64,000 bases of DNA, taken from the NCBI GenBank assembly GCA_027623205.1, contig JAQBYC010000004.1, positions 5,810 through 69,809 on the forward strand, written 5' to 3'. Of the stretch, positions 3,848 through 54,708 are shown piece by piece. Source of the stretch: Pseudomonadota bacterium (GTDB lineage: Bacteria; Pseudomonadota; Alphaproteobacteria; GCA-2731375). How positions within the stretch are numbered: the first letter of the stretch is position 1; every line of letters begins with the position of its first letter. The translations under genes and the position numbers were made by a program. The notes beneath the pieces are model-generated. The model did not search any database, was not told the origin of the DNA, and saw only the letters and a list, made by a program, of their open reading frames with translations.

Positions 3848-3893
3848 AAAAAAACCGCCTCAGCATTCTCAAGCGCAAGCTTTTGCTGGGCGG
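3848..3893 (-). terminator. Leader terminator hairpin in the metY 5' UTR, a putative riboswitch expression platform.
   Basis: On the minus strand: CCGCCCAGCA...UGCUGAGGCGG followed by U7 (the A-run at 3848-3854 on the plus strand). It lies between the SAM-II-like element and the metY start codon. Confidence 0.6.
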
Positions 3894-3905
3894 TGGGTAC
3901 CGACC

Positions 3906-3953
3906 GGTTTAGCTGCATTTTTTTAGCGCCCGCAAGCTGGCTCAAATCGGCGC
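3906..3953 (-). promoter_or_regulatory. SAM-II (SAM-alpha)-like riboswitch aptamer candidate upstream of metY.
   Basis: The minus-strand RNA reads GCGCCGAUUUGAGCCAGCUUGCGGGCGCUAAAAAAAUGCAGCUAAACC. The GCGCC/GGCGC stem encloses a loop containing GAUUU and AGCUUG. The 3' A-rich tract plus GCAGCUAAA could form a pseudoknot with the loop. This resembles the SAM-II consensus as I remember it, and the context (an alphaproteobacterial methionine gene) is canonical. Confidence 0.5.
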
Positions 3954-4020
3954 AAGAGGTACTCTAGAGGAATTCTCAGGAGCAAGTCAATAATGGATTT
4001 AAACATGCCTATATCTTTAT

Positions 4021-5627: not shown

Positions 5628-6385
5628 CCATGACGCGCATCGTATTTGTAACCGGCGGGGCCAGCGGCATCGGCCTGGCCCTGGCCCGCCGCTTCGCCGA
5701 AGGCGGCGACCAGGTGGTGCTGGGCGATATCAGTGACGCGGCGGGGCGCGCCGCCGCTGCAACCATTGCCGGCGCCAGCTACCGCCATCTCGATGTTACG
5801 GATGCGGCCCAGATCGAACGAACCGTGGCGGCCCTGGAACAGGATTTGGGGGCCATCGACGTTCTGGTGAACTCCGCCGGTCTGCTACAGAACCGGGCCG
5901 AGACCGCGACCTTTCCCCTCGACGAACACGACCGGATTTGGGCCGTGAACTATCGCGGCAGCTACCTGATGTGCCGGGCCTGCGCGCCGCGCATGGCGGC
6001 GCGGCAAGACGGCGCTATTTTGAATATCGCCTCGGTCAACAGCTTCACGCCCCTGCCCTTGCCGGCCTATACCCCGACCAAGGCGGCGATTGATTCCCTG
6101 ACCAAGCTGCTGGCGGCGGAATTCGGCCCCGCCGGCGTGCGGGTGAACGCGGTGGCGCCCGGCTTTACCCTGACGCCCGCGCTGCAATCCAGAATCGACA
6201 GCGGCGACCGCGACCCCGCCGGCATGAAACGCCTCAGCACCCTGGGCCGACTGGTAAAGCCCGAAGAGGTCGCCGAAGCCGGCTATTTCCTCTGTTCCCC
6301 GGCCGCCTCGGCGATCACCGGCGTCAACCTTTTGGTGGACTGCGGCTTCATGGCGGCAATCAGCTACAATACTTATCCGAGTTGA
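5624..6385 (+). CDS. Short-chain dehydrogenase/reductase (SDR).
   Basis: TGGASGIG Rossmann motif, NSAG, and the YxxxK catalytic motif (YTPTKAAI). Its start overlaps the upstream stop (ATGA). Confidence 0.85.
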   Translation: MTMTRIVFVTGGASGIGLALARRFAEGGDQVVLGDISDAAGRAAAATIAGASYRHLDVTDAAQIERTVAALEQDLGAIDVLVNSAGLLQNRAETATFPLDEHDRIWAVNYRGSYLMCRACAPRMAARQDGAILNIASVNSFTPLPLPAYTPTKAAIDSLTKLLAAEFGPAGVRVNAVAPGFTLTPALQSRIDSGDRDPAGMKRLSTLGRLVKPEEVAEAGYFLCSPAASAITGVNLLVDCGFMAAISYNTYPS

Positions 6386-43108: not shown

Positions 43109-43429
43109 TCAAAAAGGCAATTTCAGGCCGGCAGGCAGGTTCAGGCCACCGGTCAGTTTGCTCATCTCTTCCTGGGTATAGTCCTCGACCCGGCGCTTGG
43201 CATCGTTGTGGGCGGCGATGATCAGGTCTTCCATTACCTCGATCTCGCCGTCTTTCAAACTGGCGTCCATTTTCAGGCCACGCATTTCCCCCTTGCCATT
43301 CAAGGTGACGCTGACCAGGCCGGCGCCTGCCTGGCCGGTCATTTCAACCTCTTCCATGCGGGCCTGCATTTCCTGCATTTTGCCCTGCATTTCCTGTGCC
43401 TGTTTCATCATCTGGCTCAGATTTTTCAT
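43109..43429 (-). CDS. ybaB: Nucleoid-associated protein, YbaB/EbfC family.
   Basis: 106 aa. [15 protein letters not shown]...[14 protein letters not shown]...LPF. Conserved position between dnaX and recR. Confidence 0.9.
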
Positions 43430-45357
43430 CTCTGCTCTACTCCATTCGAGGTATCGTTTTGCGCCGGTGCGGCAGCGTCGCCGTCTTCAACGCGATCATG
43501 AAGGGGGCGAATGTCGGTAACCTTAGCGCCGGGGAACGTATCCAGCACGGCCTTGACCAGCGGGTCGCCCTCGGTATCGGTCAATATATCAGCCTCGACC
43601 TGCCGCTGTTGCACGGCCAGGGGGGGCTGTCCAACAGCCTGGCTGTTGATCACGACGGCCCAGGTCTCACCGGTCCAGACTTCCAGCTTGCCGCGCAGTT
43701 TATTCGCCAGATCGGCTGGGGCATTGGCCCCGGGATGAATTTCGAGATGCCCTGGCCGGAACGCCACCAACCGGACATCCTCCATCAAGTGATGGTACAG
43801 GCGCCCATCGCGGGCTGCCTTGGCATGCTCGGCAATCGCCTCGAAACTAACGATGGTGACGGCCTGGAGGGCGGTCTCCGCCAGATCGGCTGACGCTGGG
43901 TCGGATGCAGCCCGCCCCGGCGCTTCTCCCGAAAATTCATAATCCTGTTGTTCCGGCATCGGCACCGGCATTTCGTCCGGCACCGCTAACGCCCGGGCGG
44001 CCACGCCGCGCCCAGTCTGGCGCCCCGGCAACGATGCTGACGCAGGCGCGCCAACCGGCGTGGGGGCCTGCCCGGGGGTAGCCTTGGCGTCCGTGGCGCC
44101 GGCCGCACCGGTAACTGCACGCACGGCATCGATGGGGGTTGGCAGGTCCGTGCTGTAGGCGAGGCGGATCAGGATCATTTCAGCGGCGGCCAGGGCCGAC
44201 GGCGCACCGCGAATCTCGCTCAATCCCTTCAAAAGCATCTGCCAGGTGCGCGCCAGAACAGGCATGGACAGGCCACTTGCCAGGGTCCTGGCCCGTTGCC
44301 GCTCCAACTCCGAAAGGCTGGGATCGGCGCCGGCCTCCGGCGCCACCTGCAAACGGGTCAGCAAATGGGTCAATGCCAACAGATCACGCAAAACCACTTC
44401 CGGATCGGCGCCCAGATCGTATTGTTCGCGCAATTGCCCCAAGGCCCCTGCCACGTCGCCGCGCATCAATTCCTCGAACAGATCATAAATCCGTACGCGG
44501 TCCGCCAGCCCCAGCATCTCGCGCACCTGCTGGGCCGTCACCCTGCCGCCACAATGGGCGATGGCCTGATCCAACAGGGATAGCCCGTCCCGCACGGAAC
44601 CTTCCGCCGCGCCAGCAATCAGGTTCAACGCCTCTGCTTCCGCAGTTGCTCCCTCCGCCTCGACAATGCCGCCGAAATGGGCCACCAGCAATTCCGCCCC
44701 CACCCGGCGCAGATCAAAGCGTTGACAGCGCGACAGCACGGTCACCGGCAGTTTGCGAATTTCCGTCGTGGCAAAGATGAACTTCACGTGCGACGGCGGC
44801 TCCTCCAGCGTCTTCAACAAGGCATTGAAGGCGGCCAGGGACAGCATGTGTACTTCATCGATGATATAGATCTTGAAGCGGGCCGAGGCGGGCAAATATC
44901 GCACACCCTCCAGCAGATCGCGCATATTATCAACGCCGGTACGCGACGCCGCATCCATTTCCAGCACATCCACATGCCGGGATTCGGCGATTGCCCTGCA
45001 ATGTTCGCAAACCCCACAAGGGTCGATGGTCGGGCCGCCCTGGCCATCGGCGCCGATGCAATTCAGCGACCGGGCAATGATCCGCGCCGTCGTCGTCTTG
45101 CCCACACCGCGAACGCCGGTCAGGATGAAGGCGTGCGCAATACGGTCTTCGCGAATGGCATTGGTGATGGTGCGGACCAAGGCATCCTGACCCACCAATT
45201 GGCTGAAATCCTGAGGCCGGTATTTGCGCGCCAGGACCCGATAGGCCGCATCGTCCGGCGGCCTGCCGCCAGTGCCTCTAGCGCCCGCGGGCGCCGCGCT
45301 ATCCACATCAATTTCGTTCATGGCCTCACTTGGAGCGGGTTTGGAACCTACGCTCAC
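43426..45357 (-). CDS. dnaX: DNA polymerase III subunits gamma/tau.
   Basis: [13 protein letters not shown]...[13 protein letters not shown] (Walker A), CGVCEHC zinc module, DEVHML and [11 protein letters not shown] at 45355-45357; the ATG at 45319-45321 is an alternative. Confidence 0.95.
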
Positions 45358-45410
45358 AGGTTAGCATGGCAGGGCAGCATTATAAATGGACTGCATCAAT
45401 TGTTATGAAG

Positions 45411-45510
45411 TGGAAGAACGGCCAACAACCCGGACCAAACTTGTTACGGCTGCTTCCTTTCGGACCTGACCGGATTGGCAAGAGGCCCGTCCGTAGCCGC
45501 CCTTCCGCCG
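45411..45510 (-). ncRNA. ffs: Signal recognition particle RNA (4.5S RNA).
   Basis: The minus strand contains the conserved domain IV core CCGGUCAGGUCCGAAAGGAAGCAGCC. It is flanked by pairing arms GGAAGGGCGGC...GCCGUUCUUCC. It sits in the canonical position immediately upstream of dnaX. The ends are approximate. Confidence 0.85.
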
Positions 45511-45632: not shown

Positions 45633-46703
45633 CTATTCGCGTCCGCCTTCCACGGGACAATGCTGGGCGCGCCAGCGCAACATGCCGCCGGCCAGATTTG
45701 CGATCTCGGTGAAGCCGGCACGGCGCAGGATAACCGTCGCCTGGGCCGAACGCCCACCGGCCCGGCAGACGGCGATGATCGGTTGTTCCTTGTCCAGTTC
45801 CTCGGCGCGCCTGGCGAGATCGCCTAACGGTATCAGTTTGGCGCCCTGAATACGGCCCAACGGCCCGTCAAATTCGTCCTCTTCGCGCACATCCACGATC
45901 TGCGCCACGCCCAAGTTTTCCTCCAGCCACTGCGGCTGCACCTCCCAGATGCCGGCGAATGTGCAGGTCAGGCTGGCCCACGTCGGCTTATCATCTGGGA
46001 TATCGTCATCGTCGGGTCGGCCGCATTTCAAGTTCGCCGGCACCGCTATATCCATCTTCTTCGGATGGTCCAGACCCAGATTGTCCATGTAGCCGGCAAA
46101 ATCACTCTGACTCAATTGTCCGCCAAGACGCGGGTTGAAGGCTTTCTCCTCCGCCACGCTGGTTGCCGTCAGGCCGCGGTAGTCGTGACCCGGGTAAAGC
46201 AGGCAGTCGTCCGGCAAGGTGAATATCTGGGTATGAATTGAACGGTACATCTGCCCGGCATCGCCGCCCTGAAAATCGGTACGTCCGCATCCCCGGATCA
46301 GCAGGCAGTCACCAGTAAACGCCATCTTTTCCGTATCAAGCACAAATGTGAGACAGCCGGCGGTGTGACCGGGCGTGGCCCTGACGGTCAGGTAACGGTC
46401 ACCGAAATTGATCCTGTCGCCATGGACGAGGGGTTGATCAACCCCAACGGCACCACCATCCGCCGACTGCGCGATCTTGCTGCCGGCACTATTCCGCAGC
46501 AACCAGGCGCCGGTAACGTGATCGGCATGGACATGGGTTTCAAGCGTGTAGAGCAAGTTCAGGCCAAGTTCATTCAACAACGCGCCGTCGCGCCGGGCCT
46601 GCTCATAGACCGGATCGATCAGCACCGCTTCACCTGTCCCTGAATCGGCCAGCAAATAAGTATAAGTCGCCGATTGCGGATCAAATAGCTGACGAAATAG
46701 CAT
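45633..46703 (-). CDS. Persulfide dioxygenase (ETHE1-like MBL fold) fused to a C-terminal rhodanese domain.
   Basis: HVHADHVTG metallo-beta-lactamase motif at the N-terminus. The C-terminal rhodanese active-site loop is CRAGGRS. Confidence 0.8.
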   Translation of the reverse strand: MLFRQLFDPQSATYTYLLADSGTGEAVLIDPVYEQARRDGALLNELGLNLLYTLETHVHADHVTGAWLLRNSAGSKIAQSADGGAVGVDQPLVHGDRINFGDRYLTVRATPGHTAGCLTFVLDTEKMAFTGDCLLIRGCGRTDFQGGDAGQMYRSIHTQIFTLPDDCLLYPGHDYRGLTATSVAEEKAFNPRLGGQLSQSDFAGYMDNLGLDHPKKMDIAVPANLKCGRPDDDDIPDDKPTWASLTCTFAGIWEVQPQWLEENLGVAQIVDVREEDEFDGPLGRIQGAKLIPLGDLARRAEELDKEQPIIAVCRAGGRSAQATVILRRAGFTEIANLAGGMLRWRAQHCPVEGGRE

Positions 46704-47008: not shown

Positions 47009-47935
47009 ATGGAGTTCATCAATACCTTTGCCGGCAGCCCCTTGAACCGAATGGGTAATGAGCGGCGAAACGCGGACTGGCTGCAACAACAAATGGACGA
47101 CCCGGAGAGCTGCTTTTTGCCCCTGTGGCAGTTGCGCGGCCTGATGCTGCCGGGGGATGAATTGCGTCTTGGCTGGTGCCGGCGGGCCGATGTGCAGCCA
47201 TTCATCGCTCAAGGCGCGACGGTTCTATTGCTGGGCCAGATCAATGGCCGTTCGCACTTCGCGGTGGATGTCTCCGCGGCCGGCCCGAAAAAGGCCGACG
47301 CGCCGCTGCAGGACTTCGGCAAATGGATCGATGTACGCAGCGCGGCAGCATCGTGCGGCCACGGCGACGCCGCCATCCTGGCGCAATCCCGTTCCATGCT
47401 GGACTGGCATGTCCGGCACGGCTTTTGCTCGGTCTGCGGCCAGCCCTCGAGCATGGGCGAGGCGGGCTATTCCCGCAAATGCAACGACGAGGCGTGCGGC
47501 GCCATGCATTTCCCGCGCACCGACCCGGTCACCATCATGCTGGTGCTGGATGGCGAGCGCTGCCTGTTGGGGCGGCAAAAGATCTTTGCCCCGAACAGCT
47601 ATTCCGCCCTGGCCGGCTTCATGGAACCAGGCGAAACCATGGAAGAAACCGTGCGCCGCGAAGTCTTTGAAGAGGCCGGCATTCGGGTCGGCGATGTGCG
47701 CTATATCTTTTCGCAACCCTGGCCCTTCCCCTCTTCATTGATGATGGGCTGCTTTGGCACGGCGGAAACCACCGAGATCAAAATCGATCCAGCCGAACTG
47801 GAAGAAGCCCGCTGGTTCAGCCGGGACGAGGTGGCGGACATGGTGCACAGCTGGCAGGACCAGACCAAGTTGCGCATGCCCGCCCCCCTGGCCATTGCCC
47901 ATCAACTGGCCCAGGCCTGGCTGCGCGGCGATTAG
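47009..47935 (+). CDS. nudC: NAD+ diphosphatase (NADH pyrophosphatase).
   Basis: Zinc ribbon CSVCG...CNDEACG, FPRTDP, NUDIX box GFMEPGETMEETVRREVFEEAGI and the downstream SQPWPFP motif typical of NudC. Confidence 0.85.
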   Translation: MEFINTFAGSPLNRMGNERRNADWLQQQMDDPESCFLPLWQLRGLMLPGDELRLGWCRRADVQPFIAQGATVLLLGQINGRSHFAVDVSAAGPKKADAPLQDFGKWIDVRSAAASCGHGDAAILAQSRSMLDWHVRHGFCSVCGQPSSMGEAGYSRKCNDEACGAMHFPRTDPVTIMLVLDGERCLLGRQKIFAPNSYSALAGFMEPGETMEETVRREVFEEAGIRVGDVRYIFSQPWPFPSSLMMGCFGTAETTEIKIDPAELEEARWFSRDEVADMVHSWQDQTKLRMPAPLAIAHQLAQAWLRGD

Positions 47936-48191
47936 AGGACTTTCGGACTAGACCTCATCAATACGTCTACCGCTGGATGCAGAAGTCATTGCTTGGAATA
48001 GTCAATGGTTCTAAGGTTCGCGCCACTGCGTCGCATAGCGAAAGCGTGTTTGAACGCTACCTAAAATATTGACCCCACGATGGGTGACAGCACTTGTATT
48101 TTGATGTTTTAATTTGGCGTGTGCTGCCTGTATTGGCAGCAATGTTGGGTCGATAGGACATACGGCATTGGATCTCAGGGAAGTGAGGTAG

Positions 48192-48515
48192 ATGACTGTG
48201 AAAAAATCGGATCGCAAAAGCCACCGCCAACTCATCAGGCATTTGATCACCGCTAAGTTGGCGGTTGGGGCTGCCTGTTTGGTTCTAAGCGCCACGGTCG
48301 CCCAAAAGGCGAGCGCGATAGCCGCGCCCGAAGAAGCCAAAATCTCGATCGCGGACCGGATTGAGGCCATTCGGTCAAGCCTCCGCACCCAAGGCGCCAA
48401 GGAGGGCGGGCCGTTGCACGCCCTGAAACAAGTGGCCCAATGGTACAATTGGCCGAACTGGCGAAATGGCTGGAACGACTGGCGGAACCAACGCTGGTTT
48501 AATTATCGGCGGTAA
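48192..48515 (+). CDS. Small secreted peptide with a C-terminal Trp-X-Asn repeat, a candidate RiPP precursor.
   Basis: 107 aa. Basic N-terminus, a hydrophobic core and AQKASA-IAAP (Sec signal-like), then an amphipathic middle. The tail is QWYNWPNWRNGWNDWRNQRWFNYRR (nt 48441-48512). It ends 28 nt upstream of a radical SAM/SPASM gene. Confidence 0.65.
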   Translation: MTVKKSDRKSHRQLIRHLITAKLAVGAACLVLSATVAQKASAIAAPEEAKISIADRIEAIRSSLRTQGAKEGGPLHALKQVAQWYNWPNWRNGWNDWRNQRWFNYRR

Positions 48516-48543
48516 CGCCACACGCATGACCGCCGACGGATGA

Positions 48544-49806
48544 ATGTGGCTCTATAAGTCCGTAGGCCCTGATCATGCGGCGCAAATGGACGTATCGGAG
48601 CCGCTGATGGAAAGGAATTCCTTGTCAAGTCATCAAGCGGATATATCTCCGGTGATTGATTTGCTGGTCATCCAGCCGACGCCCTTCTGCAATCTCGACT
48701 GCGACTATTGTTATTTGCCGAACCGGGGCGACAGGCGAAAAATCGATCCTGATACTCTGAGGCGGATCTTCAAGGCGGTGTTCGAAAGCGAATTCCTGGG
48801 GCGCCAATTGGGCATAGTTTGGCACGCCGGCGAACCAACCACGATGCCGATCGAGTTTTACCGCACTGCGTTCGCCCTTGCGGAACAATCAAAGCCGGAA
48901 GATCTGGCGCTTACCCACTCAATTCAAACCAATGCGGTGTTGATCGACCAGGCCTGGTGCGATTTCGTCCTGGAAACCGGCCTTCAGGTCGGCGTGAGTG
49001 TCGATGGCCCCGCGTTCCTGCACGATCGTCATCGAAAAACCCGGTCCGGCGCCGGTACCCATGCGCGGACGCTCCGCGGTATCAGACGATTGCAGGACAA
49101 CGGTATCGATTTTCATGCGATCTGCGTGCTGACGCGCGACTCCCTCGACTATCCCGACGAGATCTTCGACTTCTTCGCCGATAACAATATCGGACAGATC
49201 GGCTTCAACATCGATGAGATCGAGGGCGCAAATCATGACTCAACGTTGACCGGTGTCGGTACCGATACGCTGTTCAGACGTTTTCTGCGCCGTTTTCTCG
49301 ATCTGCTGAAACAGCATCCAGGAATTCTGAGCGTCCGCGAATTCGATGATACCATGTCAGCCATCGCCGCCGACGAAAATGCCGCTATCTATAATCATCA
49401 GGTCATGCCCTTCGGCATCGTCAGCGTCGATGCCGACGGCAATATCAGCACCTTTTCGCCGGAACTCCTGGGGCAGTCTTCCCGTACTTACGGAGACTTT
49501 GCTTTTGGCAACGTTCACCAAGGGGGGCTTGATGACGTGGAAAATAACGCCGCGTTTCAAAAGACGCGGCGGGAGATCAAGGCGGGACTCTCACGCTGCC
49601 GCGAAACATGTGATTATTACGGTGTCTGCGGCGGCGGCGCACCGTCCAACAAGTTCTTCGAACATGGCCGCTTCGACGAAACAGAGACGATGTATTGCCG
49701 CCTCACAAAAATGGCGGTAACGGATATTGTCATATCGGACATTGAAGCAGACCTCGCGCAGCATGCTGCCGAATTCGTCACGGCGGCCGGGGGTCAGCGC
49801 GCATGA
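48544..49806 (+). CDS. Radical SAM/SPASM-domain peptide maturase resembling AnSME and cyclophane-forming maturases.
   Basis: QPTPFCNLDCDYCYLPNR (CxxxCxxC at nt 48688-48711), WHAGEPT, and the C-terminal auxiliary-cluster region CRETCDYYGVCGGGAPSNKF...YCR. The ATG at 48607 (GGAG 6 nt upstream) may be the true start. Confidence 0.85.
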   Translation: MWLYKSVGPDHAAQMDVSEPLMERNSLSSHQADISPVIDLLVIQPTPFCNLDCDYCYLPNRGDRRKIDPDTLRRIFKAVFESEFLGRQLGIVWHAGEPTTMPIEFYRTAFALAEQSKPEDLALTHSIQTNAVLIDQAWCDFVLETGLQVGVSVDGPAFLHDRHRKTRSGAGTHARTLRGIRRLQDNGIDFHAICVLTRDSLDYPDEIFDFFADNNIGQIGFNIDEIEGANHDSTLTGVGTDTLFRRFLRRFLDLLKQHPGILSVREFDDTMSAIAADENAAIYNHQVMPFGIVSVDADGNISTFSPELLGQSSRTYGDFAFGNVHQGGLDDVENNAAFQKTRREIKAGLSRCRETCDYYGVCGGGAPSNKFFEHGRFDETETMYCRLTKMAVTDIVISDIEADLAQHAAEFVTAAGGQRA

Positions 49807-50558
49807 CAAGCATTCAGCCGGTTGATCCTGCAAAACCGACCGAACGCGGCGGCGGGGTAATTGTGCGGCCATTTTCACACTATGCCGGCCACTGGCGGGC
49901 CGAGCAAAAGTTGCGGGTACATTCCGGCGCGAAGCTGAAGATGCACGGCGATGCACCGCGCGATGACTGGCGCACGCCACGGGATGTTGAGTTATCGCGT
50001 TTGACAGGCGGTGATACCGATGGCGCCGATCTCTTGGTGGTCGAGGTTTTTACCTTCCCGAACCACCTTAGGAATGACTCTTGGGGTTTGAATTTGGATT
50101 CAGATCAGGTTTCCGCCGGTTCGGGCGTTTCGCAGGAATATCGGGCATTTGCGGCCCGCTTGCTGGAATACCTGGAATTCATCCGTGTGCCCGTCAACCG
50201 AACCTGCACAATTCGAGCAGAGATCTCGCGTCCAGGTGGTGGCCCGTCTTGGACTGCCGCCGGCCCGCCAGCAGGAGACAAAGTGGCGTCGGACGGTCGA
50301 CCGGTTGCGGAGTCAACCACCATAATGCTCAATTTTGGCTTCGAGCCGCGCGGCGTCGTGTGGGCCAATCAGGATCCGTCATGTCCGTGGGTGAGGCTTG
50401 CATTGGAACCGGGTGAAGCTTGCTTCGGCCCGTTTCGGCAAATGCAGCTGGTTCAGGATACCTTGGGGATGACGGAACCCGATTTCAACCTGATCGTCGA
50501 ACCATCCGAGTCCGAACAACACGCCAACAAAGACCTATGTGGTGTTTGTCATGACTGA
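49803..50558 (+). CDS. Hypothetical protein, operon partner of the radical SAM maturase.
   Basis: 251 aa. Its ATG overlaps the maturase stop (ATGA at 49803-49806). No motif I recognise. Confidence 0.55.
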   Translation: MTSIQPVDPAKPTERGGGVIVRPFSHYAGHWRAEQKLRVHSGAKLKMHGDAPRDDWRTPRDVELSRLTGGDTDGADLLVVEVFTFPNHLRNDSWGLNLDSDQVSAGSGVSQEYRAFAARLLEYLEFIRVPVNRTCTIRAEISRPGGGPSWTAAGPPAGDKVASDGRPVAESTTIMLNFGFEPRGVVWANQDPSCPWVRLALEPGEACFGPFRQMQLVQDTLGMTEPDFNLIVEPSESEQHANKDLCGVCHD

Positions 50559-53500
50559 CAATAATGAACCGACCCCGAATTCCGCGTCCGGCGCTGAAGG
50601 TCAGGCCAATGAAGCGCGAAGGTATTTTGGTGCTGTCCTATCCTGGAAAACCGCCAGCTTAGTGCTTTTCATCTTGATTATTGGCGTTGCTCTGGAAAGA
50701 ATATTTATAGTGTTCCCCAATATTTCAGTGCAACTCACCAATGAGCGCGATGGCGGCTTTATCCTGGTCGATAGTCCGGAGATATATTCCCGCGAACGTT
50801 TGTTGAACGATAGGCTTCGCCAACACGATTGGCTAATGGAGCTTCTGAAAAAAATGGACGATCTTAAGTTCGGAAGCCAGGCAACTATCGAACAAATGGA
50901 TAACAGCCAGTTCGGCGCTAATATTTCTGCCCGCGCAGGACCGTTGGTGGAAAATTCCGCGGGCGCCATCGCGCCCTTGACAACGGACACTAGATCTCCT
51001 GCGCAAGGAGTAGAGAATTCAGCGGCACCTGGCCGGCGCGAGGCCAACGGCGCAAGTTCGGGGAAGCCCACCGAAACAAATATCGAAAGATTTCGTAGCC
51101 GGCTGGCCTACCGGGAAGAAATACGGGCGGAGCTGTTGGAGACGCAACTCGATGACCGGCACGACATCAAAGGCAACACGCTTTACCGTCTGAAATTCGA
51201 CGTCACAGTCCTGCCGCAGGAAGGAAACGAAAACTGGGCATTTGTCGAGGTCAAGTTGAGTAATGACGACGAACCTGAGGACAATTTGGATGTCTATACC
51301 AGGTGGTTGAAAGACACGCAACAGCGACTAAATGACTATCTCTTTGAGCTGACGCAGGCGTTTTTCACCCGAACAGCGAAGCCGGAAGTGTTGCATGAGT
51401 TGGAAACTTTCATGCGTCAGAAAATTCCAGATGTTATTCTGGAGAGTGACTATTTCCAGAAAGAGCCATCTTCTTCACCGCCCGCTAAGCACCAAACGCA
51501 TTGCCGCGCCGAGACCATCAGCCGAAGATTGGATTGCTTGGACGGATTTTTTGAACGAGTTTTGAATGCGCCATATTCTGATCAGATATTTGGCAGGATC
51601 GAGGCCACGCTTGATGGCGGAACGGATCGAGAATTTGACTTCATGCGTGCGTTTATACTCGATTATATGCACACCGTTTATGGCAAATCGGACGACCCGT
51701 ATGTCGGGGGACATCAAAGCCCTGCTTACATTCGTTATGCGTCCTGGAGGACAGCGCTGAGCGAGGCGTCCCGCGCTATTCCTGCCGGCCATGATAATCT
51801 CAGCGCCCTGTTCGACGATCCGAATTCTGATTATAATGATCTGCTGAAGACACCCGATAGTTTGTCTCCCCATAAAATTCAGCAGTTATTGACCAATTTC
51901 AAGAAGGACAAGAATTTTTCTGCGATATATGATGCCTTCCAACTAACCGCTGACGCATTTGAATTGGAGCGGCACTTGATCCAGTCGGCAATTGCCGATT
52001 TCGTGGTCGAGAAATATCTTCACGTACACGCACTCAACCGATTTGCGCTACTTGTGAAGACCGGATGCGATGTTGGTTATTGCAACATCGCCATGAGCCC
52101 AAAATCAGGGTATTATACAAACGATTCAGGCCAATGTGCGGGGAAATACCGACCGCTAGGCGCCACCAATAGCAGCAGATGGGCGTGTCCCGATAGGGGC
52201 ATTGTCGCGGGTTTCTATCAAGCCTTGAAAAACGCGCCGGTTTATTCCTACGCCGTGAGCCCAAAGGAATCGATCCAACGGGTGGCGAATTTATCTTCCC
52301 ACGTTCAAGAATTGAACCTCGCGCTCAACACCGCCGCGAAGGTTTCGTCGTCTGCAAACATCGAAGGTCTAATTAGTCTTCTAAGGAGCGAACAAAAGCG
52401 CGTTCAATCAATCAAACGCCAGCCATTGATTGTTGGGTTCTCGGATCGTTATTTTGCCACGGGCAAATATTCTTACAACGGTTTGATAGAAAGGCCCCCC
52501 GCCGTGACTCATTTCGGTTGGTTGATCGGACCCAAGTTTGACATCGGCGAAAAGCCAACATTCCATCATGTCCCGATACAAAATGCGGTTGCCGCCGTGG
52601 TGTCTGTCCCGAGTTGGTGGAAGAGAGCGAAGATCGAGGTTGCTTCGTGCTTTGTCGCGCCAGCGCATACGACAATGCTTTTGACCAAATCCGATGCTGA
52701 GGGCTCTAAATCCATATGCGGACCAGAAAAAAAGGAAGCGGACACAAATTCAGGGACGGGGAAAAATACCACCGGCGACGCCAGCAAAGAAGCCAGACGA
52801 AACAAGCGGAATTTCGACTTCAAAATTCGTCTGCCGGGGCGGGCGGATGAAATCCCGCGCAAGATAGGCTACGCCGTGGGCCGCAGTCCGCGATTGACAT
52901 CACAAGGGTCACTCGGCGCGCTCTATGTGGGGCAAAAAGAGGCCAAGCTGTTGCTGTTCGGGATTGATCTTTGGCGCAGCACCGTTGTCACGGTCGGATC
53001 CCAGAAAGCTGACGGGATCGAGATTCTGCCGGACATGAAAGGTATCATTGCAAGGTTCGATGATGTGAAGGCGCCGCTGCGCTGGGGCATAGAGGGACGG
53101 GACGGTGCCCAACGTCGTGGAAATTTTTGCAAGGCGCATGCAGAACTTTTCGTATGGACGAGCGAGGGCAAAACCGAACCGCAAATAGTGACGATCTATC
53201 AGTCGAAAGAGGATTTCGAACGAGGCGGCTGCAAGAGAGATATTCAACCAGGAGAAACCGAACCTAGGAATATCCAGCCAGAAGCGCTAGCGCATTTGAG
53301 CGTTGGCACCAAAAATGCGGAGCTGCATATCGACGGTCGAAATTTGCAACAGGTCACCCATGTCACTTTGGGAAATCAGATCAGCAGCAAAACGACCCCG
53401 TTAGGTGGGGGCGGCATTATGGCAATGTTTGATGAAATCAAAAATCCGACGGATTGGCCAAACGGCCCGTCTTGGATGCGGGTTCCGGTCATGGTCTGGG

Positions 53501-53658
53501 GTCGTGACCGGAAATGGTCTCCTGGGTTCGCCTGTCTTTATCCGAAAGGGGTCAACCTTAAAGATGACACTGTGCCGCTGTGCCCATCCCACGGACCTCA
53601 ATCGGGCTTTAATAGCGGGCCGCCCGATAGTAACCGGCCCGCCTATCCAACCAAATGA
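50551..53658 (+). CDS. Large membrane-anchored hypothetical protein with a tandem C-terminal repeat.
   Basis: About 1035 aa. The ATG at 50551 overlaps the upstream TGA (50556-50558). One N-terminal TM helix (TASLVLFILIIGVAL). Two related segments of about 90 aa lie at nt 52909-53200 and 53287-53545. The ORF track start at 50539 is an alternative. Confidence 0.65.
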   Translation: MTDNNEPTPNSASGAEGQANEARRYFGAVLSWKTASLVLFILIIGVALERIFIVFPNISVQLTNERDGGFILVDSPEIYSRERLLNDRLRQHDWLMELLKKMDDLKFGSQATIEQMDNSQFGANISARAGPLVENSAGAIAPLTTDTRSPAQGVENSAAPGRREANGASSGKPTETNIERFRSRLAYREEIRAELLETQLDDRHDIKGNTLYRLKFDVTVLPQEGNENWAFVEVKLSNDDEPEDNLDVYTRWLKDTQQRLNDYLFELTQAFFTRTAKPEVLHELETFMRQKIPDVILESDYFQKEPSSSPPAKHQTHCRAETISRRLDCLDGFFERVLNAPYSDQIFGRIEATLDGGTDREFDFMRAFILDYMHTVYGKSDDPYVGGHQSPAYIRYASWRTALSEASRAIPAGHDNLSALFDDPNSDYNDLLKTPDSLSPHKIQQLLTNFKKDKNFSAIYDAFQLTADAFELERHLIQSAIADFVVEKYLHVHALNRFALLVKTGCDVGYCNIAMSPKSGYYTNDSGQCAGKYRPLGATNSSRWACPDRGIVAGFYQALKNAPVYSYAVSPKESIQRVANLSSHVQELNLALNTAAKVSSSANIEGLISLLRSEQKRVQSIKRQPLIVGFSDRYFATGKYSYNGLIERPPAVTHFGWLIGPKFDIGEKPTFHHVPIQNAVAAVVSVPSWWKRAKIEVASCFVAPAHTTMLLTKSDAEGSKSICGPEKKEADTNSGTGKNTTGDASKEARRNKRNFDFKIRLPGRADEIPRKIGYAVGRSPRLTSQGSLGALYVGQKEAKLLLFGIDLWRSTVVTVGSQKADGIEILPDMKGIIARFDDVKAPLRWGIEGRDGAQRRGNFCKAHAELFVWTSEGKTEPQIVTIYQSKEDFERGGCKRDIQPGETEPRNIQPEALAHLSVGTKNAELHIDGRNLQQVTHVTLGNQISSKTTPLGGGGIMAMFDEIKNPTDWPNGPSWMRVPVMVWGRDRKWSPGFACLYPKGVNLKDDTVPLCPSHGPQSGFNSGPPDSNRPAYPTK

Positions 53659-53796
53659 GTATCTGCGTTTCAGGGGCTGCGGCACGAAGTCATTGATCGG
53701 CCAGACCTTTTCATAGCCTCCACTGGGCGCAGAAATCAGGGGTTGGCGCAGGCAACTAATTCCAGGATGAGTGGCGCTTGAACGCAATTTCATTGA

Positions 53797-54708
53797 TCAA
53801 CCAAACAGCAGCAGGACCACGATGCTGCCCGCGACCAGGGCCATGCCGGACAGTTCCTTGGGCGTTGAACGTTCCTTGAAGAACAGCACCGACAGGCACA
53901 GGGTGAACAGCAGCTCCACCTGACCCAGCGCTTTGACATAGGCGGCGCGCTCGATGGTCATGGCCGTGAACCAGCCGGCGGAACCGATCACCGAGGTGAT
54001 GCCGACGAACAGGCAGCCGCGCCAGTTGGGCGCCATGACGGTGAATTGATCGCGGGCGCGCAGCAGCATATAGGCCGACATCACCGCCGTTTGGATCAAC
54101 AGCACCATGGCGAGCGTCAGGGCGGCGGCATAAAGCCAGTCATCCAGGCCCAGGGACAGGCTGGCCTGGCGCAGGAACAGCGAGGCCCCGGCAAAGCCCA
54201 GGCCCGCGGCCAGGCCAACGCCGGCGGCGGGCTGAAACAACCGCCGCAACAGGGTATCGCCGGCGATGCCGGTGCGGGCGAGATTGATCACCACCACGCC
54301 GACGGCGCCCAGGGCGATGGCGACCCAGCCGGCGCCGGCGATGGCCTCGTGAAAGACCGTCGCCCCCAACAACGCCGTCAACAGGGCTTCGGTGCGGGCA
54401 TAAGTGGAGCCGACGGCAAAGTTGCGCAGGGAAAAGAGGAATACCAGCAGGACAGTGGCGGCGATCTGGGAAAGGCCGCACAGGGCCGCAAAGACAAAAA
54501 ACGTCCAATCCGGCGACGGCAGCTGGTGGCCGCCCAGCTGCTTCAAGAACAACAGATAGACCAGCGCAAACGGCAGCCCCCACAGAAACCGCACATAGGA
54601 TGCGCCGACCGCGGAGAAATCCCTGGTCAAGTATTTCTGGCCCGCCGTCCGCGCCGCCTGCATGAAGGCCGCCAGAAAGGTGATCGGTATCCAGAGCCAG
54701 ACTTCCAT
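53797..54708 (-). CDS. DMT-superfamily (EamA-like) transporter.
   Basis: About 303 aa with 10 hydrophobic segments in two EamA-like halves. ATG at 54706-54708; the longer ORF track start would overlap the upstream gene. Confidence 0.75.
   Translation of the reverse strand: MEVWLWIPITFLAAFMQAARTAGQKYLTRDFSAVGASYVRFLWGLPFALVYLLFLKQLGGHQLPSPDWTFFVFAALCGLSQIAATVLLVFLFSLRNFAVGSTYARTEALLTALLGATVFHEAIAGAGWVAIALGAVGVVVINLARTGIAGDTLLRRLFQPAAGVGLAAGLGFAGASLFLRQASLSLGLDDWLYAAALTLAMVLLIQTAVMSAYMLLRARDQFTVMAPNWRGCLFVGITSVIGSAGWFTAMTIERAAYVKALGQVELLFTLCLSVLFFKERSTPKELSGMALVAGSIVVLLLFG

Follow-up and report, generated by a model that had tools for sequence, protein, structure and literature searches.

The window that we analyzed is a stretch of 64,000 nucleotides (nt) from the Pseudomonadota bacterium assembly GCA_027623205.1 (Alphaproteobacteria; GCA-2731375), which corresponds to positions 5,810 to 69,809 of the forward strand of contig JAQBYC010000004.1. 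On its plus strand lie four co-oriented genes that overlap or abut (49803/49806 and 50539/50558). They encode a 107-amino-acid (aa) protein that we read as a divergent GrrA/OscA-type triceptide precursor (48192 to 48515), a radical S-adenosylmethionine (SAM) maturase of the GrrM/OscB family (48544 to 49806), a 251-aa MicC-like protein (49803 to 50558), and a large protein of 1039 aa (50539 to 53658). Triceptides are a recently defined class of peptides that are made on ribosomes and modified after translation (RiPPs). A preliminary description of this DNA had singled out the two ends of the first open reading frame (ORF), a Trp-rich tail and a signal peptide.

The tail, which we take as the core of the precursor, spans residues 84 to 107 (48441 to 48512, plus strand). 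In the frame of the precursor ORF, it reads WYN WPN WRN G WND WRN QR WFN YRR. Translation thus bore out what the preliminary description had read there, namely, six Trp residues, five of them followed by Asn at +2; in the remaining triplet, position +2 is Asp. The Trp residues are at positions 84, 87, 90, 94, 97, and 102, and all six Trp residues of the protein lie inside the 24-residue core. We found that 48441 to 48512 is the sole site with at least three W-x-[ND] motifs among the 76,620 stop-free 24-residue stretches in the six-frame translation of the 64-kb window. The probability of at least six Trp residues in 24 is about 6e-7 (binomial, with the window Trp frequency of 1.34%), and six W-x-[ND] motifs were regained in only 9 of 200,000 shuffles of the 24-residue tail. 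The register of the core, as well as its composition, is therefore nonrandom. A degenerate TGG-NNN-AAY repeat had also been claimed for the DNA. The core codons do follow this pattern in general, except that the W-N-D triplet is TGG-AAC-GAC, but Tandem Repeats Finder reported no tandem repeat in the core. Thus, the periodicity of the core is kept at the protein level.

We found only three homologues of the precursor in the protein database (53 to 77% identity). Compared with the 77%-identical homologue, the gene has 14, 13, and 28 differences at codon positions 1, 2, and 3, respectively, with 22 synonymous and 24 nonsynonymous codon changes; by this codon-position bias, the ORF behaves as a coding sequence. 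All three homologues retain the six W-x-N/D columns, Gly93, and Gln83 without change, so the conservation of register on which the first reading depended is present. In contrast, the terminal YRR is missing from one of the three and is not a known OscB motif, which reduces the six or seven rings first proposed to six. The precursor contains no Pfam domain. The GrrA/OscA1 model TIGR04260 matched residues 27 to 105 with 23.5 bits (E = 6.5e-5), a match that is specific yet subthreshold. The same model gave 30.4 bits, 25.8 bits, or no match with the close homologues, gave 131 bits with one Gly-rich cyanobacterial member, and did not match Gly-poor W-x-N precursors that lie beside bona fide GrrM relatives. 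TIGR04260 therefore seems to be tuned to a Gly-rich subclass.

The maturase gene (48544 to 49806, plus strand) begins 28 nt after the end of the precursor gene and encodes 420 aa from this ATG, although the true start may lie downstream. Its product matched TIGR04261, the model for the cyclophane-forming radical SAM/SPASM maturase GrrM/OscB, with 480.3 bits (E = 3.5e-144; curated cutoff, 310 bits), and the alignment of residues 43 to 401 covers profile positions 1 to 362 of 363. The models for other maturases all stayed below their own cutoffs (AmcB, 322/425 bits; DynA, 168/450; YhhB, 145/445; FxsB, 120/370; XyeB, 87/450). The protein also matches Pfam Radical_SAM and carries the CxxxCxxC cluster motif as CNLDCDYC at residues 49 to 56. 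Among solved structures, those closest to it are anSME and the triceptide synthase ChlB (9gm3, E = 4e-18). We scanned for GrrM/OscB relatives in one genome per species and obtained 80 loci; loci are labeled L001 and so on throughout. C352, C356, C362, and C385 are each Cys in 80/80 aligned relatives. Pfam SPASM is subthreshold on the maturase (17.1 versus 21.5 bits), which we connect with the fact that only four C-terminal Cys residues are conserved in the family. Because the neighboring enzyme is a member of GrrM/OscB, the earlier inference of a three-residue cyclophane-forming enzyme, which had been drawn from the motif only, is borne out.

The GrrM/OscB triceptide class dates from 2020 (Nguyen et al., Nat Chem, as summarized in PMC11002830). 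OscB is reported to connect residue i with residue i+2: Trp-C7 is joined to the Cβ of either Asn or Asp, Phe-C4 to that of Asn, and the products are called triceptides. In the triplets accepted by the family, position 1 is reportedly Trp or Phe, whereas position 3 is Asn or Asp (PMC11002830). Given the family of the maturase and the Trp-to-Asn/Asp linkage reported for OscB, we conclude that the locus holds a triceptide precursor/maturase pair. The core fits the reported OscB specificity, and we predict Trp-to-Cβ links at its six W-x-N/D triplets.

The 80 loci come mainly from cyanobacteria (maturases with 44 to 52% identity), and the remainder include Verrucomicrobiota, Planctomycetota, Acidobacteriota, and Gammaproteobacteria. 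The nearest maturase relative among them (77% identity) is in an Alphaproteobacteria metagenome-assembled genome (MAG). In most of the loci, an ORF of about 100 to 150 residues that ends in [WF]-x-[ND] repeats lies directly upstream of the GrrM/OscB relative. The Gly content of the family cores spans 0 to 49%, and Gly-poor cores with back-to-back W-x-N/D triplets also occur in cyanobacteria (L007 to L012, L018, and L040). The compact Trp-only array of the window is thus one end of a known spectrum. We found no recurrent protease or transporter in the cyanobacterial GrrM/OscB loci, which as a rule consist just of one or more precursors and the maturase and where the only recurrent neighbors are extra precursor copies and unrelated housekeeping genes; this fits the use of general export and cleavage machinery.

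Three further features of these precursors were seen. In many cyanobacterial loci, precursor genes that differ from each other, two or three in number, share a single maturase, and often one of them is Trp-rich and another Phe/Gly-rich (L010, L011, L016, L021, L034, L045, L046, L054, L058 to L060, L065, L067, and L073). The verrucomicrobial precursors at L004 5365-5778 and L006 1545-2015 have a His/Lys/Asp-rich tail, NHNKHHKHHHDDDD, after twelve W-x-N/D motifs, which hints at metal binding or at a follower peptide. A Gln directly ahead of the first core Trp (Gln83-Trp84 in the window precursor, 48438 to 48443) recurs as Q-W-[YN]-N-W in Gly-poor precursors of several phyla; besides the window, it is found in L084, L085, L088 to L090, L010, L016, L020, and L040. 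Gln83 may be a processing determinant, or it may later form an N-terminal pyroglutamate if the cut falls before it.

The precursor begins with a segment that resembles a signal peptide of the general secretion (Sec) type (residues 1 to 42; 48192 to 48317, plus strand), with the cut predicted between ASA and IAAP. The n-region has 22 residues, mostly basic, with a net charge of +6. It is followed by an uncharged h-region, LAVGAACLVLSATVA, of 15 residues (mean Kyte-Doolittle hydropathy, 2.2) and by a c-region, QKASA, whose residues at -3 and -1 are small; IAAP comes next. These parts are present as the preliminary description had them. Our test for such segments was heuristic. Inside the first 45 residues, it looked for an uncharged run of 9 or more residues whose mean hydropathy was at least 1.6; the charge of the n-region could not be negative, and -3 and -1 had to be occupied by small residues no more than 10 residues past the run. 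We applied it to 82 distinct precursor candidates and to 546 long control ORFs from the same DNA. We found that 82/82 candidates passed, versus 135/546 controls (25%). The window precursor passes as well; the idea that its signal peptide is a special feature did not survive, since the other family candidates pass too. By this test, the signal-like N terminus is a trait of the whole GrrA/OscA family and is not peculiar to the window gene. The h-regions of the family precursors have a median length of 14.5 residues, which is in the range of signal peptides and short for a membrane span. We did not find signal peptides tied to triceptides or other cyclophane RiPPs in the literature searched, which excluded the primary triceptide papers (Nguyen 2020 and Sugiyama 2022).

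Past the predicted cut lies a leader motif, IADRIEAIRSSLR (residues 53 to 65; 48348 to 48386, plus strand), of the form I-x-x-R-[LI]-x-x-[IL]-x-x-x-[LI]-R. The family version, [ST]-[IV]-E-x-R-[LI]-x-R-[IL]-x-x-A-[IL]-R, likewise follows the predicted cut, and the window has S-I-A-D-R-I-E-A-I-R-S-S-L-R. In a survey of 86 GrrA/OscA-type family precursors, 68 had the strict motif, and the remainder, by eye, had a relaxed R-phi-x-x-phi-[RQK] form. The close homologues do not vary at I53, D55, R56, I60, and R61. We presume that the motif is the element recognized by the maturase. Its amphipathicity is not significant (454 of 5,000 shuffles reached the observed value). As judged from their sequences, the plan of the family precursors is a signal-like segment, a conserved leader helix, a variable linker, and a repeat core. 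With the predicted cut directly after ASA, the leader motif would stay on the exported product.

Taken together, these data make it probable, in our view, that the ORF at 48192 to 48515 encodes the precursor of a triceptide that is stapled six times by the adjacent GrrM/OscB enzyme and then exported by Sec and cut. In the cytoplasm, the GrrM/OscB-type radical SAM enzyme would bind the leader of the precursor. A 5'-deoxyadenosyl radical would take a Cβ hydrogen from each Asn or Asp, and the Cβ would be joined to the indole of the Trp that precedes it by two positions (at C7 in OscB). Six small rings would result, each with a loss of 2 Da (-12.09 Da overall). The stapled preprotein would then leave by general secretion, and signal peptidase I would cut after ASA. 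The product would be basic, with about 65 residues, a pI of about 10.5, and a mass of 7773.98 Da before modification. Extra trimming ahead of the conserved Gln83-Trp84 is possible; characterized triceptides are matured by a cut just before the first cyclophane motif (PMC12912966). The 251-aa protein in the cytoplasm and the 1039-aa protein anchored in the membrane would be part of the same module. The motif array and its conservation, the membership of the enzyme in its family, the tripartite architecture of the family precursors, and the linkage of the genes are directly seen. Recognition of the leader, ring chemistry, the order of events, export, cleavage, and the roles of the accessory genes are what we infer from them.

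Several points weigh against this account. The precursor scores below the curated cutoff of TIGR04260 (23.5 versus 31 bits), and it is not glycine-rich, as Gly makes up 1/24 of its core (4%) versus 30 to 49% in most cyanobacterial members. Its n-region is longer and more basic than is usual in Sec signals, and the heuristic signal test is crude, since a quarter of the control ORFs also pass it. Retention of the leader motif after the cut would be unusual for a RiPP and would need either a further protease or a final product of 65 residues. Finally, the size of the SecY pore may make macrocyclized peptides poor Sec substrates (PMC11626156). That objection applies here in principle; by our own reasoning, it may weigh less for three-residue rings, which are small.

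The two downstream genes had been overlooked when the locus was first described as lacking a dedicated transporter. We found no transporter gene in the four-gene island, so that part of the claim held, but the island does contain two conserved operon genes, one of them for a large membrane-anchored protein. An equivalent four-gene set is present in a related Alphaproteobacteria MAG, between the same NUDIX and EamA genes.

The start of the 251-aa gene (49803 to 50558, plus strand) overlaps the stop of the maturase gene. The protein had no Pfam, NCBIfam, or PADLOC match. An exhaustive HMMER search gave a family of 58 representatives, and a profile of 43 members matched PDB 9vkm_A (MicC) over profile positions 19 to 248 with an E value of 1.1e-17. 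MicC is an α-ketoglutarate-dependent nonheme iron enzyme that cleaves a Gly N-Cα bond and leaves a C-terminal amide (PMC12912966). The 251-aa protein is thus a distant relative of MicC. We found, however, that it has K, A, and L where MicC has its iron ligands H160, D162, and H253 and that the first His of this triad is kept in 3/43 members of the family and the last His in 8/43. The 251-aa protein is therefore probably not an iron oxygenase, and it may be a pseudoenzyme or a protein with a different chemistry. Neither it nor the maturase has a hydrophobic N terminus; thus, both should be cytoplasmic. Besides the window, the 251-aa family lies 3' of the maturase in six loci (L001, L085, L006, L004, L017, and L012), and a member adjoins a large protein at the contig edge of L083. 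The MicC-like gene and a long basic n-region on the precursor coincide in the window/L001, L085, L004/L006, and L017, but not in L012, so that independent cases are few. What looked in L017 like a maturase fused to the MicC-like protein was traced to a stop-free alternative frame in a high-GC contig and rejected.

The large protein (50539 to 53658, plus strand) has 1039 aa, or 1035 aa from the ATG at 50551, and belongs to an unnamed family with 20 homologues. It had no Pfam, NCBIfam, or PADLOC match, and none of the 20 homologues has a Pfam domain. AlphaFold2 gave a model with a mean pLDDT (predicted local distance difference test score) of 65, in which an N-terminal membrane helix is followed by a long helical region and by C-terminal immunoglobulin (Ig)-like β-sandwich domains. 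Foldseek searches with this model returned generic tandem Ig-like folds only (TM-scores of 0.1 to 0.2), and a comparison of the family profile with PDB sequences gave nothing meaningful. A rough positive-inside reading of the sequence suggests that the bulk of the protein is probably extracytoplasmic. Members of the family have about 900 to 1040 aa and share highly conserved motifs, e.g., LDDRHDIKGNTLYRLKFD and LWRSTVVT.G.QKAD.IE.LP.MKGIIA.F. The family is found 3' of precursor and maturase in at least eight loci (the window, L001, L084, L085, L088, L089, L090, and L029); these linked cases are noncyanobacterial, and the precursors concerned have Q-W-[YN]-N-W as their common core start. A homologue without any radical SAM gene was also seen (L086 8001-10373 and L087 722-3094), so the large-protein family is not strictly tied to triceptide loci. 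The L086 homologue is downstream of Peptidase_C14 (caspase-like) and trypsin-like genes and near a type I restriction HsdR gene.

The GC content of the island is 0.49 to 0.58, compared with 0.61 to 0.65 in its flanks. A tentative 15-nt imperfect direct repeat (13/15 identical) brackets the four genes, with the left copy, GAAGTCATTGCTTGG, at 47982 to 47996 and the right copy, GAAGTCATTGATCGG, at 53686 to 53700 (both plus strand). The repeat could be the scar of an insertion, or the two copies could match by chance. When 47800 to 54000 was scanned for promoters and terminators, the results were no better than those for shuffles. Farther away, on the minus strand, we noted a bacterial small signal recognition particle RNA (45410 to 45505; Rfam RF00169, 56.8 bits) just upstream of dnaX (43426 to 45357, minus strand). 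A SAM-II riboswitch aptamer lies at 3888 to 3963 on the same strand (Rfam RF00521; 38.2 bits versus a gathering score of 36); this alphaproteobacterial SAM riboswitch is consistent with the origin of the window. The minus-strand gene at 45633 to 46703 has a syntenic counterpart of the same length (356 aa) in L001, in which Pfam finds Lactamase_B and Rhodanese domains. On these grounds, we read the window gene, which the syntenic MAG retains, as a putative metallo-β-lactamase-fold/rhodanese fusion resembling persulfide dioxygenases.

How else could the precursor and its N terminus be explained? That the ORF encodes an ordinary small periplasmic protein, with a Trp-rich tail unrelated to the radical SAM neighbor, is hardly credible. 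Such a protein would account for the secretion signal, for the lack of a Pfam domain, and for a length of 107 aa, which is long for a RiPP precursor. It would not account for the [WF]-x-[ND] ORFs that, in most of the 80 loci, directly precede the GrrM/OscB relative and that do so in Cyanobacteria, Verrucomicrobiota, Planctomycetota, Acidobacteriota, and Proteobacteria, nor for the match to the GrrA/OscA1 model or the agreement of the core motif with the reported specificity of the enzyme family. A second possibility, which we hold to be unlikely, is that the hydrophobic N terminus is never cleaved. It would then be either an N-in anchor that exposes the stapled tail at the outer surface of the inner membrane or a part of the leader that the enzymes recognize, with no role in export. 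The small residues at -3 and -1 after the h-region, found in 82/82 candidates and in all four close homologues, argue for cleavage, as does the shortness of the uncharged h-region for a membrane span (15 residues here; family median, 14.5), although the apolar stretch from I19 to A37 reaches 19 residues once K22 is counted. The charge of +6 on the n-region favors an N-in orientation, and the conserved leader motif lies past the predicted cut and so would not be removed by cleavage. As for a leader without an export role, the authors of the bufferin study could not exclude an overlap of leader and Sec signal (PMC11626156); in the present family, however, the h-region is poorly conserved in sequence and keeps its character, which is typical of signal peptides rather than of recognition sequences.

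Export of the modified precursor by the twin-arginine translocation (Tat) pathway, with the long basic n-region as a degenerate Tat signal, seems quite unlikely to us. This route, which serves proteins that are folded or bear cofactors, would sidestep the SecY pore-size objection to a stapled peptide. Three of the four clade sequences and the precursor of L085, a related metagenomic locus, have S/N-R-R-x-[HYL]-I-[KR], which is similar to the Tat consensus, S/T-R-R-x-F-L-K, and the c-region contains a basic residue (QKASA or HKASA), a known Sec-avoidance feature. The window precursor itself, however, has His-Arg (S-H-R-Q-L-I-R) and not Arg-Arg, and the RR lies about 10 residues ahead of the h-region, with the charged residues K, D, and K in between. 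Weak N-terminal matches to TIGR02811 ("formate dehydrogenase region TAT target") of 12 to 17 bits are far under its cutoff of 48 bits, and no match to a general Tat-signal model was reported. In addition, L084, L088, L089, and L090, which are linked to the large protein, and the cyanobacterial precursors have short, ordinary Sec-type n-regions (e.g., MYRIKHYAL). A further alternative concerns the 251-aa protein, which could be an active MicC-like enzyme that cleaves at the N-Cα bond of Gly93 and so yields WYNWPNWRN-NH2, with three rings, and a second three-ring fragment. MicC cuts strictly at a Gly after a cyclophane in a triceptide (PMC12912966), Gly93 is the single core Gly and is invariant in four homologues, and the overlap of gene start and maturase stop (ATGA) suggests translational coupling. 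Against these points and the profile match to MicC (E = 1.1e-17) stand the replacement of the Fe-binding residues H160, D162, and H253 by K, A, and L and the rarity of the first and last His in the family (3/43 and 8/43). Elsewhere in the family, too, there is no His, Asp, or Glu column that corresponds to the MicC triad, in an alignment that is gappy in that loop region, and an AlphaFold2 model of the 251-aa protein from two sequences reached a pLDDT of 28, which leaves the fold unconfirmed. We consider cleavage by this protein very unlikely.

We therefore return to a six-ring triceptide exported by Sec as the reading that we prefer. A broader proposal is possible, and we put it forward tentatively, as something that could well be wrong. 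The four genes may be an undescribed, noncyanobacterial subtype of triceptide locus, in which a stapled Trp-rich protein is exported by Sec and acts in the envelope, either jointly with the large protein or upon it. Having lost its iron chemistry, the MicC-like protein would be a noncatalytic partner that binds the precursor, e.g., to delay export until stapling is complete, and Sec signals would be a defining, unremarked trait of the GrrA/OscA family. If this last point were true, a large family of RiPPs macrocyclized by radical SAM enzymes would use general secretion.

The class of the precursor/maturase pair is known. What is worth following is the family-wide Sec-type signal, which is apparently undiscussed in the literature that we reached, and the two linked accessory genes. 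The natural end products and roles of triceptides are largely unknown, and work on them has mostly relied on tagged precursors coexpressed in Escherichia coli. A functional signal peptide would mean that the native product should be found in the periplasm or supernatant, as a peptide or small protein that starts at Ile43 or further in. A functional signal would also explain why most GrrM/OscB loci lack a protease and a transporter, and it would offer a test of whether small side-chain macrocycles pass through SecYEG. The compact six-ring core is a handy minimal substrate for the study of how the enzyme handles adjacent motifs, and the two accessory genes are handles on the role of the peptide in noncyanobacterial hosts.

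Among known systems, the other cyclophane maturases (AmcB, XncB/XyeB, MscB/FxsB, YhhB, ChlB, and DarE/DynA of darobactin and dynobactin) are homologous radical SAM enzymes that likewise connect an aromatic residue with the Cβ of a residue two positions along. They differ in motif specificity, with Arg, Ser, Lys, or Ala at position 3 or with Trp-Trp ether links. The minviopeptin mic pathway of Mucilaginibacter inviolabilis (MicA, MicB, MicC, and MicD; PMC12912966) resembles the window locus in its combination of a triceptide radical SAM maturase and a MicC-family protein. MicB, however, is PasB-like, whereas the window maturase is GrrM/OscB-like. The window locus has no ADP-ribosyltransferase, its 251-aa protein lacks the 2-His-1-Asp iron triad of MicC, and it is without the ABC (ATP-binding cassette) transporter of the mic cluster. 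The term "signal peptide" has 0 occurrences in the minviopeptin paper.

The bufferins, which are modified by multinuclear nonheme iron-dependent oxidases (MNIOs), share with the window precursor a long RiPP precursor (80 to 120 aa) with a Sec-type signal (PMC11626156), the export route being predicted in the window. Modification in the cytoplasm, general export with no dedicated transporter, and a small protein as the product are common to both, again as predictions for the window. In contrast, the chemistry of the bufferins is the conversion of Cys to thiooxazole by an MNIO enzyme and a partner, and their export and cleavage have been shown by experiment. Sec signals are rare in bacterial RiPPs; cinnamycin, chryseobasin, and oxazolin are the other suggested cases, and triceptides are not listed (PMC11626156). 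This agrees with the earlier remark that the signal peptide is atypical for RiPPs. If the signal on the window precursor is functional, triceptides would join the bufferins as a second example, with unrelated chemistry, of RiPPs that rely on general secretion.

The closest comparison is with GrrA/GrrM, which is the same as OscA/OscB (TIGR04260/TIGR04261). Unlike that system, the window locus belongs to an alphaproteobacterium and not to a cyanobacterium, its precursor is below the TIGR04260 cutoff with a long and basic n-region, and its core is all Trp, with only 24 residues, one Gly where that system has 30 to 45% Gly, and back-to-back triplets. Two extra conserved genes lie downstream. As in OscA/OscB, however, the maturase is above the family cutoff with the precursor directly upstream, and that precursor follows the same three-part plan: a signal-like N terminus, an R-phi-x-x-phi leader, and C-terminal [WF]-x-[ND] repeats.

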